In this document: positions 1 through 5,524 of the stretch, piece after piece | Numbering within the stretch: the stretch's first letter is position 1 | Layout: each line of letters starts with the position of its first letter | From: a virus | Lineage: Duplodnaviria > Heunggongvirae > Uroviricota > Caudoviricetes | Virus record (IMG/VR): IMGVR_UViG_2657245660_000018 | Strand: one strand, 5' to 3' | Length of the DNA stretch: 9,457 nucleotides | The notes under the pieces: generated by a model | Told to the model about the DNA's origin: nothing | The model's database searches: none | The model's input: only the letters and a program-made list of their open reading frames with translations | Position numbers and translations under genes: made by a program

Positions 1-173
1 TGTCAGTTATCATCTTCGGTTACGGTTATCGGCAGAACGCCCTGCCGCTGACAAGAGCTTATTTGCCTGACCAATCTACTCCACATGATAGATAACTATC
101 ATTTATAACATTTCATTGATTAGTCTTTATTTTTCACTATGTTACAAATAACAACTCCGTCAAAAACAGCGAA

Positions 174-197
174 ATTAACTACACCATTAACTACACC
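174..197. repeat. perfect tandem direct repeat, 2 x 12 bp (ATTAACTACACC)
   Basis: Read directly: attaactacacc at 174-185 and again at 186-197. Confidence 0.85.
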
Positions 198-203
198 GTT
201 TCA

Positions 204-240
204 CGAACAATATCGAACAACCACGAACAAAGATCAACAC
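204..240. repeat. helically phased short direct repeats (CGAACAA x3 plus TCAACAC, 10-bp period)
   Basis: CGAACAA at 204-210, 214-220, 224-230 and related TCAACAC at 234-240; the spacing is exactly 10 bp. Confidence 0.75.
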
Positions 241-293
241 GCTTTAACCGTTATCATTTTCCGGCCATCCGTTATGAAGCTGGTGGATGTTCC

Positions 294-3482: not shown

Positions 3483-3530
3483 TTATTTTTACCCCCCTCG
3501 TTTAAAAAGTTTTAGGTTGTGGTGCACCTC

Positions 3531-3755
3531 CTCTACCTCTTCTACCTAATCATCTTTCAGGTCAGTAATGGCGCGGCTTTCAGATGGGTAGAGGACTTTT
3601 CGTGGCCCTCTACCCATCCTCTACCCGCCCCTCACAAACGACCTTAATCATGGTAGAGGGGGTAGAGGGGTTTTATTAGCCTTCTACCTATCCCTCTACC
3701 CACTTATCATGTTGAATAATATGCGTTTATTTCATTCAGGTAGATGGGGTAGAGG
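3531..3755. repeat. iteron array, candidate replication origin (11 copies of GGTAGAGG / CTCTACC in alternating orientation)
   Basis: CTCTACC at 3531, 3540, 3608, 3619, 3682 and 3694; GGTAGAGG at 3587, 3652, 3661, 3739 (GGTAGAT variant) and 3748. Paired copies are 9-12 bp apart. AT-rich stretches flank the array (3481-3515, 3761-3780). It lies immediately 3' of the primase gene. Confidence 0.75.
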
Positions 3756-3769
3756 GCTTTTACAAAAAA

Positions 3770-5524
3770 TTATAAAAACGCGTCACAATCATCCGTTGTA
3801 ATTGCGTTGGTCTGCGTTACTCCCTTAACTTTTCGCGTAATATATTCATGTCCGTAAACTTTCGCCGCTGGCTTCATGGCCTTGCTGAAATCAGCCACGT
3901 TTAGCGGCTTGCTTCTTCCTGCGTATGCCATAAACGCCAGATAGACGCGGTAAAGGCTGTTTCTGGTCGTGTACTTCACGGAATCGCCACCGCCACCCAT
4001 CATCAGGCCGCGCGCTTCCTCCAGAAAATTCAGGAACTGGCAAAACTCAATAACCGGATCTGTCTGTTGCTTTATCGCCAGTGCTTCATCACCGTCGCGC
4101 TGTTCCAGTAATAAAGCCCGTGCCTTTTCAGGGTCAGCAAAATTAGCCAGCAAGCGGCGGATAATCACAGGGATTTCAGCCGCGACCTTCTCCGGCAAAT
4201 CCTTGTCCTTTTCTGCCTCGCTAACGATATTGTCAAAGCGAAAAATAACCCGACGACGTGCCACGCCTCCGGCCCGTTCGGTGAATATCATCGGGTTGTT
4301 GTTGGTCGCCAGCACCACCGCCCTGATTACCGCCGTGAAACGCTTTTCATATTTCGGGTTAATTTCCACGGGGTCGCCGCCCGTGATTTTCTTGATGCCC
4401 GTTCCTTCGCCTGTATATTTCGGCTGGTCAGCCAGGACGATAAGACGACTCCCGACAACCTGCGCGCGCCCTCCTGCATCATCGAGTGATGTCATTTCAG
4501 CGCTTACCGTGTTCTGTTTCCCTGCCAGAAGGCTGGCTATGTGCGTGAATGTACTTTTACCGCTACCGCCGTCTCCGGTGGCCTCAATAAACATCTGCCA
4601 GTCGTACCGGTTCGCCATAATCATGTACAGCGCGGCACATATACGCATCATCTTGCGCGGGTCTTTTCCGGCTGCGTGATCAAGCCATTTGTGAAAGTTT
4701 GGCGCGTTGTCGCGAATGTTCTCCCCAGGTGCTGGTGGCGTGTACTCAATGCCGTTGTGCGTGGTGATCCAGTTCTCCGGCGTGTGCGGGGAAAATTCCC
4801 CCGTTTTCAGGTCAAGCGCACCATTGGCGAACGGCAGCAAATCGCAGGACGGCTCCCCCATTGGTTCGGCAATAACTTTTAACGCTTCAACGGCGTTATT
4901 GATTACGCGCTTGCTGAAAGTGGCCCTGTGCTCTGAATAGATCGCCACCATTTCGCGGCTAAGTTCCATTGTGCTGACCGGACACCATAACCCGCCGCGC
5001 CATACGTGAACGATTTCACTTTCAGGATGTACGCAAACGCCATCAAAGCGATCGGAAAGCAGCTGAGCGCGTTCACTGTCCGCCATCTGCGAAAGTTGCG
5101 CCTTTTGCTTTACCGGAAGCTCAACGAACAGACCTTCAGAAAGATTCTGGCGCTCACGGGCCAGATATTCGCGCCAGTTCTCCACCTCCTGAACGTGCAT
5201 TCCCTCAGGGTAAAAATTTGCATCCTGTACACCTGCCGCCGCCAGCTTCTGACCAATCGCCTTTATCATTACTGGCGCAAGATATCCGGCCCTGAATATG
5301 CGTACTGATTTTCGGCCTTCCGGCACAATTTGCAGCTTATCCAGTTCGGATAACTGCTGATCCCCAAGCCACACAGGAGGCTCATTATCTCCGGCTATAC
5401 GCGCGTCATGTTCCTGCCACTGTTTTGCATGTGCCCACGCATCACTACCCGCGAAAATAATTACCTCTGTGTCTTTGTGTTTTATTCCGCGTGACTGCTG
5501 TTTTACGTTCGGTGCAAGTTTCAT
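3770..5524 (-). CDS. replicative primase-helicase, P4 / D5 family C-terminal NTPase domain (584 aa)
   Basis: Walker A GDGGSGKST, followed by RLIVLADQP and ITGGDPVEINPKYEK as in the phage/plasmid primase P4-family C-terminal domain. The N-terminal ~250 aa is not assigned. GGGGT lies 6 nt upstream of the ATG, which overlaps the stop of the upstream gene (ATGA at 5521-5524). Confidence 0.85.
   Translation of the reverse strand: MKLAPNVKQQSRGIKHKDTEVIIFAGSDAWAHAKQWQEHDARIAGDNEPPVWLGDQQLSELDKLQIVPEGRKSVRIFRAGYLAPVMIKAIGQKLAAAGVQDANFYPEGMHVQEVENWREYLARERQNLSEGLFVELPVKQKAQLSQMADSERAQLLSDRFDGVCVHPESEIVHVWRGGLWCPVSTMELSREMVAIYSEHRATFSKRVINNAVEALKVIAEPMGEPSCDLLPFANGALDLKTGEFSPHTPENWITTHNGIEYTPPAPGENIRDNAPNFHKWLDHAAGKDPRKMMRICAALYMIMANRYDWQMFIEATGDGGSGKSTFTHIASLLAGKQNTVSAEMTSLDDAGGRAQVVGSRLIVLADQPKYTGEGTGIKKITGGDPVEINPKYEKRFTAVIRAVVLATNNNPMIFTERAGGVARRRVIFRFDNIVSEAEKDKDLPEKVAAEIPVIIRRLLANFADPEKARALLLEQRDGDEALAIKQQTDPVIEFCQFLNFLEEARGLMMGGGGDSVKYTTRNSLYRVYLAFMAYAGRSKPLNVADFSKAMKPAAKVYGHEYITRKVKGVTQTNAITTDDCDAFL

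Follow-up and report, generated by a model that had tools for sequence, protein, structure and literature searches.

Doubled 12-mers and a phased heptamer array at the int-distal end of a Gram-negative phage-inducible chromosomal island: a probable attachment-arm module for integrase and AlpA

A viral sequence of 9,457 nucleotides assigned to the Caudoviricetes (IMG/VR record IMGVR_UViG_2657245660_000018; this whole stretch is hereafter called the window) carries two kinds of short direct repeats near its left edge, and the question raised by this locus is which proteins these repeats could bind. The genes of the window form a set typical of phage satellites (int, alpA, a primase gene, terS and a gene for a capsid-like protein, all on the minus strand), arranged in the order found in Gram-negative phage-inducible chromosomal islands (PICIs), and the window is therefore considered to be such an island. 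A first-pass annotation of the sequence had proposed that the repeats were either arm-type sites of the integrase or another protein-binding array. Location, presence on both arms and covariation now support a protein-binding role and refine this either/or reading, in that the repeats most likely represent two different types of site for two different proteins; the choice made there of both Int and AlpA as proteins to examine was thus apt. The block at 174-247 is, with good probability, the int-distal arm module of the phage attachment site (attP), in which the 12-mers would be arm-type sites of the integrase (Int) and the heptamers would be sites of AlpA, acting as a recombination directionality factor (RDF). 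The block is composed of the following features:

174-185 and 186-197, plus strand: 12-mer ATTAACTACACC, present twice in exact tandem; proposed pair of Int arm-type sites.
204, 214 and 224 (204-230), plus strand: heptamer CGAACAA, three times with an exact period of 10 bp; proposed AlpA (RDF) array.
234-247, plus strand: degenerate fourth unit TCAACAC followed by GCTTTAA, in phase with the array; end of the conserved block.

The exact tandem of the 12-mer and the 10-bp steps of the heptamer were confirmed as first described. CGAACAA (reverse complement TTGTTCG) occurs only these three times in the whole window, both strands counted. In 1000 dinucleotide-preserving shuffles of the window, a heptamer present three times at a period of 10 or 11 bp was never obtained (0/1000) and an exact tandem duplication of 10-14 bp was obtained 21 times (21/1000), so that the repeat pattern is not an effect of base composition. 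An ATG-started open reading frame of 65 aa (139-336) spans the repeats, which could in principle make them a coding feature, or else a product of chance. However, in addition to the shuffle result, this frame is unannotated in any of the RefSeq records examined, and both its ATG and its reading frame are absent from islands with a class-2 AlpA that nevertheless keep the motifs; an explanation by chance or by coding is extremely improbable.

The position of the repeats relative to the ends of the element was established from the chromosomal insertion site, located between clpS and cspD in E. coli O157:H7 and other strains. Bases 1-106 of the window match 5425 of 5426 complete E. coli genomes; bases 1-85 are the chromosomal sequence upstream of clpS, and bases 1-102 correspond to the chromosome plus a 17-bp attachment (att) core, as follows:

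86-102, no strand: att identity block TGATAGATAACTATCAT at the left (int-distal) junction, with inverted core-type half-sites TGATAG and CTATCA.

The empty site, in strain RR1, reads ...TGATAGATAACTATCATctatcg..., and the int-proximal junction contains TGATAAATAACTATCAT. It follows from these two sequences that the palindrome TGATAG-ATAA-CTATCA, which had been noticed at about 87-102 and is in fact shifted by one base (86-91 and 96-101), is the att core, or crossover site. The longest block common to the junctions is ATAACTATCAT (92-102, 11 bp), within which the crossover is predicted to take place. Since the junction of the island lies at about base 102, the repeats, which are 72-145 bp inside its int-distal end, belong to the element, and the objection that this region might lie outside of it failed.

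The int-proximal arm was read from a closely related island, L001 (20387-20570), because the window ends at the ATG of int. This is the junction with which the first-pass annotation had suggested comparing the repeats, and the same repeats are found there. Indeed (i) a proximal pair of 12-mers (ATTAACTACACC ATTGACTACACC, L001 20410-20433) is located 23 nt upstream of the int ATG, (ii) CGAACTG, CGAACAA and CGAACAA follow 16 nt past this pair with a 10-bp period, and (iii) about 50 bp further toward the core, CGAACAC is present twice and adjoins the core. The proximal module has the same order as the distal module (174-247) and is co-oriented with it, and heptamer units are found at +17, +27 and +37 after the 12-mer pair on both arms. 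The repeats are thus placed like arm sites, inside the element and on both sides of the core, and their sequence is unlike that of core-type sites. When attP is reconstructed and positions are counted from the middle of the 17-bp identity block, the distal pair begins at +81 and the end of the proximal pair falls at -128; this end is 132 bp away if the middle of the 11-bp shared block ATAACTATCAT is taken instead. The distances from the identity block to the two pairs are 71 and 126 bp in this island.

The geometry was then compared among relatives inserted at clpS-cspD (L001, L003), tqsA (L007, L013; distal arm L016), phoQ-roxA (L006/L008, and L004 from Shigella at the same site), abgR (L012), allE (L015), rcnR-thiM (L010; distal arm L017) and yhdJ-fis (L014; distal arm L018), together with the packaged satellite vB_KppS-Ant (L011), in which attP is physically contiguous. 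A scan of genome contigs with the Int protein gave one useful relative among the matches listed (Shigella L004), and the E. coli and IMG/VR collections served in its place. The pair-to-pair distance, counted between the proximal pair's end and the distal pair's start, was 208, 208, 209, 209, 209, 208, 211 and 209 bp in the eight elements for which both arms were available, which represent six att sites and five sequence classes of the 12-mer (ATTAACTACACC, AGTGACTACACC, AACTGACCACAC, AMTGACTGCAC and TGTTTATACA). The position and orientation of the pairs are consequently fixed across these relatives, within 208-211 bp. Furthermore, in the IMG/VR contig IMGVR_UViG_3300019373_000108 (L026), the proximal arm, the core and the distal-arm sequence are contiguous, with a spacing of 208 bp, which is direct sequence evidence that a junction of the attP type does occur naturally, either in an excised circular form or in a tandem insertion, of a close relative of this island. 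This metagenomic contig begins in the chromosome on the clpS side and crosses the whole island, the junction being located at 10526-10780 of the reverse complement. L027 was rejected as a chance match in AT-rich DNA.

This fixed geometry bears on the possibility that the array is purely a transcriptional operator, serving a promoter directed outward to clpS or inward, and has no role in recombination. Of the promoter-like AT-rich sequence mentioned in the first-pass annotation, only a weak minus-strand match was recovered (TTGACG-16-CATAGT, 163-136, 9/12), which lies inside the island end and points toward clpS; integrases and RDFs, such as those of P4 and KplE1, also frequently act as repressors. 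However, the distance between the pairs across the core is constant whatever the flanking chromosomal gene, and the motifs are kept at six insertion sites with different neighbour genes, so that an exclusively transcriptional function is very unlikely.

Conservation of the repeats in related islands, proposed earlier as a check, was observed, the motifs being either conserved or covarying. In an alignment of eight clpS-cspD islands, which are related sequences with 85-100% identity in the int-distal arm, none of the 52 motif columns varies, compared with 46 of the 114 flanking columns (Fisher p about 1e-9, a value that is indicative only owing to kinship). The variable flanking columns are distributed between the stretch from the core to the pair (23/71) and the sequence beyond position 247 (23/43). 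In the same islands, 4 of the 15 columns of the inter-motif spacers vary, and none of the 24 columns of the 12-mer pair does. The unit TCAACAC at 234, which had been listed as the continuation of the array, is a weaker unit, matching the CGAACAC variant at only five of seven positions, yet it is in phase and invariant in the eight islands; its positional equivalent is CAAACAA in L017 and ACACAA in L007 and L016. Because the seven bases that follow it are also invariant, the functional block is taken to extend over 174-247. One further feature is present on this arm:

109-121, minus strand: IHF-like site AATCAATGAAATG, differing from WATCAANNNNTTR at one position; situated between core and 12-mer pair.

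In a consensus scan, perfect matches to the IHF consensus were found at the equivalent position of the tqsA and phoQ islands, and this match to the consensus suggests that IHF may act at 109-121.

The assignment of a protein to each motif is based on the following genes and on one additional repeat:

8234-9457, minus strand: int, gene of a tyrosine integrase that has an Arm-DNA-bind_3 domain at its N-terminus and is proposed to bind the 12-mers; the int ATG marks the end of the window.
7148-7372, minus strand: alpA, Phage_AlpA winged-helix regulator, proposed heptamer-binding RDF and activator.
7386-7400, minus strand: GTTCG twice, exactly 10 bp apart, immediately upstream of the start codon of alpA; candidate site for autoregulation by AlpA.

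The int product matches Pfam families PF00589 (Phage_integrase, E 1.6e-17) and PF13356 (Arm-DNA-bind_3, E 1.5e-16), and has the organization of a heterobivalent tyrosine integrase, in which the domain that binds the arms is separate and N-terminal. A PDB sequence search with Int returned no structure of the arm domain, the sole match (2kkp) being on the central domain. The alpA product matches PF05930 (E 2e-16) and the PDB entry 8c3t, described as 'AlpA family phage regulatory protein' (E 6e-8).

The sequence of the 12-mer follows the N-terminal domain of Int. In L004, L007, L008, L012 and L015, the beta-sheet segment of Int is the same as in the window (NDGGNLSVRHST.GLLTWYFTYR) and the 12-mer ATTAACTACACC is kept, whereas their AlpA differs from that of the window (about 59% identity) and their heptamers differ too. 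By contrast, L013 has another Int N-domain (SDGGNLSVKYLTSGKL) with the 12-mer AGTGACTACACC, L010 has yet another one (SDGGGLEIKHSKGGKL) with the 12-mer AACTGACCACAC, and in L014 and L011 the N-domain and the 12-mers are different again. The distal-arm 12-mers, which are 10-15 kb away in the integrated state, change in step with the proximal ones. Two comparisons separate the two proteins: (i) L013 and L007 share the tqsA site, the AlpA class and the heptamers but differ in the Int N-domain and in the 12-mers (TCACT versus TTAAT), and (ii) L010 and L001 have AlpA proteins that are 90.5% identical and the same CGAACAA heptamer, but the Int N-domain is only 59.6% identical and the 12-mers are not the same. 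The 12-mer sequence thus covaries with the Int N-domain and not with the other proteins of the element, in a comparison that comprises few independent classes and physically linked sequences. In the case of L007 versus L013/L016, it looks as if the arm domain had been exchanged together with the arm sites, independently of the catalytic domain and of core specificity.

These comparisons also bear on the alternative that the doubled 12-mer is bound by AlpA or by some other factor rather than by Int. This alternative takes its force from the description of a doubled motif in helper-embedded PICIs (HE-PICIs; Williams laboratory, NAR Genom Bioinform 2023), the authors of which considered that the binder could be the arm domains of Int, AlpA or another protein (PMC10111431). 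However, the 12-mers remain identical when the AlpA class changes (L007/L008 versus the window) and change with the Int N-domain when AlpA does not, on both arms; moreover, the Int arm sites of P4 and KplE1 are 12-bp tandems located at this very position. A binder other than Int is consequently quite unlikely.

A second, independent pattern of covariation links the heptamers to AlpA. The AlpA proteins with a CRTTRY recognition helix (window, L003, L010, L014) are associated with CGAAC-type heptamers, and those with SRSCRY or SRTCRY with GAAACAA, GGAACAA or GCAACAA. Among the IMG/VR loci sharing the 12-mer of the window, the CRTTRY/CGAAC combination was found in 6 arms and the SRSCRY/SRTCRY class in 16, without a single exception in the informative contigs. 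L060 and L031 were considered as exceptions and rejected, as they are incomplete contigs in which the sole hit is a 33%-identical helix-turn-helix paralogue belonging to the cargo. The repeats also have the features of an RDF array, namely direct repeats one helical turn apart that are situated beside the Int arm sites and covary with the class of a small winged-helix protein; indeed, the sites of RDFs are generally direct repeats spaced by one helical turn, and many RDFs act as transcription factors too (PMC7498355). A heptamer-type motif is also found in front of alpA itself (7386-7400), where the islands with a class-2 AlpA carry 10-bp arrays of the GACACAA/GGAACAA type instead. In EcCICFT073, AlpA is an activator of the alpA promoter, and its overexpression leads to int-dependent excision and replication of the island (PMC6092414).

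The region upstream of alpA (7373-7467, minus strand) has further features of its own. Self-palindromic GTGATATCAC boxes are present at 7467-7458 and 7446-7437, 21 bp apart, and are followed by a hairpin (GTCCTCG-12 nt-CGAGGAC) and a T-run that extend up to the alpA ATG, the two GTTCG being within the hairpin. An equivalent hairpin is present upstream of alpA in L010 and L014. This arrangement is terminator-like and suggests a terminator/antiterminator-style control of alpA, combined with a separate operator.

The architecture described here can be compared with that of several known systems. In HE-PICIs, the doubled motif tgTGTATTGCantgTGTATTGCa is present in two co-oriented copies in attP, 81+/-2 and 132+/-2 bp from the centre, and was reported to be unique to these elements, as it was not found by the authors in other PICIs (PMC10111431). 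Measured by the same yardstick as above, four HE-PICI loci gave pair-to-pair distances of 211, 211, 208 and 210 bp, and distances of 70-75 and 126-128 bp to the identity block; L114, L102 and L129 were left out because their identity block is absent or ambiguous. Since the spacings match, the 12-mer pair of the window is the positional equivalent of the doubled motif, with which it shares a 12-bp-period tandem arrangement in two co-oriented copies, the proximal one just upstream of the int ATG. The two nonetheless differ in their core (TGTATTGC in HE-PICIs versus ATTAACTACACC here) and in their insertion site (a late gene of the helper prophage versus clpS-cspD), so that the present pair is an analogue of the HE-PICI motif in another integrase clade and not a member of it. 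Equivalent motifs with other sequences are found in PICIs at clpS-cspD, phoQ, tqsA, abgR, allE, rcnR and yhdJ-fis.

In satellite P4, GenBank record NC_001609 annotates a 12-bp tandem as 'attP arm sequence repeat'. As in the window, a tandem pair located just upstream of the int ATG (16 nt in P4, 23 nt here, both within about 25 nt) is followed by the core and by a second, co-oriented pair on the other arm (P4 pairs 3942-3965 and 4151-4174, int ATG 3926), and the integrase is of the P4 family with an arm-binding domain. The P4 motif is, however, different (ATGCCCCCAATT), its pair-to-pair distance is 185 bp instead of 208-211 bp, it has extra single repeats, and the two Int proteins are distantly related, P4 not being among the top tblastn hits. 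Both Int and Vis of P4 regulate the int promoter (Pint); the P4 footprinting work on these proteins (Pierson and Kahn, 1987; Cali et al., 2004; Piazzolla, 2006) is cited here through PMC7286903 and the GenBank annotation. P4 also contains a 10-bp-period triple, CGGACAA cct CGGAAGA cgc AGGACGA, about 16 nt after its proximal pair (L019 3966-4010), that is, at the same position as the heptamer array, and this triple may be a Vis-binding array.

A parallel for the combination of both motifs is offered by KplE1 (CPS-53), the integrase of which, IntS, has an Arm-DNA-bind_3 domain. Its experimentally mapped attL runs from the core through two and then three further TorI sites and the Int arm sites, in 12-bp tandem, to the int ATG; the three TorI sites (GTTCG/GATCG/GTCCG) are 2 nt apart with a 10-bp period, and the int promoter is embedded in attL and repressed by Int and by the RDF (PMC2951348). 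A 12-bp tandem pair is also present in attR of KplE1. Read in reverse, the heptamer of the window (TTGTTCG) has the TorI-type core, period and position, whereas the Int arm motif is of the GGGTAAAA type in KplE1, and TorI is 31% identical to the AlpA of the window. A further comparison can be made with lambda, the attP of which comprises arm sites P1, P2 and P'1-3, Xis sites X1/X1.5/X2 and IHF sites H1/H2/H'. The likeness with lambda and 186 consists of a heterobivalent Int, for which each of the two arms carries arm sites, and of an RDF bound to direct repeats about one turn apart beside an arm site; the arm-binding domain families are nevertheless unrelated, and lambda has five arm sites in mixed orientation, not two symmetric tandem pairs. 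In phage 186, the RDF Apl acts both at att and at promoters (PMC7498355).

Against these likenesses, several points weigh against the assignment of the 12-mers to Int and of the heptamers to AlpA. The proximal 12-mers are physically linked to the sequence coding for the Int N-terminus, and the distal arm becomes linked to it in the circle, so that co-inheritance is possible; few classes were compared (about five for Int and about four for AlpA), and many of the loci are close relatives. In EcCICFT073, AlpA left a Pint reporter unchanged and was described as an activator and not as an excisionase (PMC6092414). A promoter scan over the proximal module found no consensus-grade int promoter; one candidate, TTGTTC-17-TACGAT, is a weak 7/12 match and is not relied on. 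Finally, TorI falls below the Pfam Phage_AlpA threshold and its similarity to AlpA is weak, and the int-distal arm of KplE1 has no evident TorI-type sites, whereas a heptamer array is present on that arm in this island. Regarding co-inheritance, the motifs that track Int and those that track AlpA are interleaved within about 330 bp of attP, and linkage blocks therefore explain the pattern poorly.

Some of these points could also favour the alternative that the heptamers are not AlpA sites but a second class of Int arm sites, host-protein sites or nothing more than a phased, bendable sequence. An excisionase role of AlpA in PICIs is unproven, the EcCICFT073 reporter result is in line with this, and the heptamer consensus is short and degenerate. 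However, the heptamer type tracks the class of the AlpA recognition helix without exception in the informative loci, and not that of Int (L010); upstream of alpA there are arrays of this type as well; and the GTTCG core, the 10-bp period and the position agree with the mapped TorI sites and fit the general signature of RDFs. A heptamer array unrelated to AlpA is on balance rather unlikely.

A role of the array as a replication origin, with iterons for a primase or helicase, was also considered, since iteron origins typically contain short direct repeats in phase, and in P4 the crr replication element adjoins attP. Against this, the islands that carry these motifs encode unrelated initiators (a D5_N primase, a DUF927 primase or a RepA-family helicase), and the motifs are duplicated symmetrically around the att core; in iteron origins, the repeats adjoin and covary with the initiator gene, which is not the case of 174-247. 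A better candidate is present elsewhere in the window: GGTAGARG occurs ten times, in both orientations, at 3530-3755 (0.34 expected by chance; ten copies attained in 0/200 shuffles), just past the stop codon of the primase gene, and the origins of Gram-negative PICIs are reported to lie downstream of the primase gene (PMC10111431). This cluster is very likely the iteron-type replication origin of the island. Because the iterons are at 3530-3755 and the motifs of 174-247 are shared by islands with unrelated initiators, the probability that 174-247 is the origin is negligible, and this reading is excluded.

On the assumption that the 12-mers are Int sites and the heptamers AlpA sites, a mechanism can be proposed. 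The tandem 12-mers would be docked by the N-terminal Arm-DNA-bind_3 domain of the P4-family tyrosine integrase, and the four 12-mers, two per arm, would hold the N-domains of an Int tetramer whose catalytic domains are on the core. The pairs being about 209 bp apart across the core, or roughly 20 helical turns, bending by IHF between each pair and the core could fold the arms back and allow Int to bridge arm and core during integration. AlpA, as an RDF, would polymerise cooperatively on the phased heptamers along one face of the DNA and bend it. Following induction of AlpA by the helper phage, it would coat the arrays beside each Int pair and, at the int-proximal junction, beside the core, and the DNA bent in this way could favour the excisive attL x attR complex. 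The heptamer-type motif upstream of alpA would serve for self-activation of AlpA. Furthermore, since any int promoter would have the proximal module between it and the int ATG, Int or AlpA could autoregulate int, as in P4 and KplE1.

The remainder of the window contains the primase gene listed below and further genes on the minus strand, which encode a 257-aa protein of no assigned function, a DUF4222 protein, a small terminase subunit and a capsid-family protein:

3770-5524, minus strand: primase, D5_N-type, according to the Pfam-level annotation of the window.

A dense non-coding repeat region extends between the att arm and the capsid-like gene (250-1000). It includes 88-nt direct repeats that are 95% identical (314-401 and 851-938), palindromes CCCGATATGGTGATCCCCATATCGGG at 817-846 and 937-962, and several imperfect repeats of 47-72 nt around AATCAATGGGTTAG. 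The palindrome GATATGGGGATCCCCA and the motif TTTTTTCCGGTTAA.GTTAATCAGGCTGGTGG are found again, at the corresponding end, in capsid-forming PICIs inserted at other sites, and these shared repeats were also seen at L006 13140-13210 and L016 5290-5400. This region could be a packaging or regulatory region. In an Rfam scan of positions 1-1100, no known RNA family was found, the sole hit being SNORD48 at E 0.65.

With respect to the insertion site, base 1 of the window is the base immediately upstream of the clpS ATG, and the insertion is situated about 86-102 nt upstream of clpS. It hits the small gene yljB at its stop codon, which is restored at the int-proximal junction; the island places 9.4 kb between clpS-clpA and yljB. 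The island family is common, an integrase of this group being encoded in about a fifth of the complete genomes of E. coli, O157:H7 among them. The window is identical to the island of FRIK2455 across bases 1-1000, and its primase gene is shifted by 58 bp relative to L001, with which it shares 94.5% identity for the primase, 97.3% for AlpA and 99.3% for Int. These differences in primase identity and offset between the window and L001 indicate a mosaic island family even among copies at the same site. In L003, also at clpS-cspD, the primase is 48% identical and the capsid module is different.

In summary, this attachment site belongs to a known kind of architecture, represented by P4, KplE1 and the doubled motif of HE-PICIs, of which it is an ordinary but cleanly resolved example, and existing models are not overturned. 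Two aspects are modestly new. A second motif, which appears to track AlpA, flanks the 12-mer pairs on both arms. The doubled motif may, in addition, be general in Gram-negative PICIs, with a constant distance of about 209 bp and a sequence that tracks Int; this generality forms part of a broader proposal that is possible but somewhat less than probable as a whole. According to this tentative proposal, the architecture of about 209 bp would be a general, unrecognised integrase signature of Gram-negative PICIs and not a trait confined to HE-PICIs; a recognition code would relate residues of the Int beta-hairpin to the 12-mer, and the AlpA helix (CRTTRY versus SRSCRY) to the heptamer; the Int N-domain and the arm sites would be swapped as a module while the catalytic domain and the target are kept (L007 versus L013); and AlpA would have a dual role.

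PICI-type satellites move virulence and defence genes and are being engineered as delivery vehicles. The docking bases and the fixed spacing would define a minimal attP for such tools and make it possible to map PICI ends precisely from sequence. The present assignment also offers a testable answer to the question, undecided in the literature, of which of the two proteins, Int or AlpA, binds the doubled motif, and suggests that AlpA links the sensing of the helper phage directly to excision. If the broader proposal is true, AlpA would be both a master activator and a true excision factor coating both att arms, which would explain the direct coupling between the induction of alpA by the helper phage and the excision of the island.

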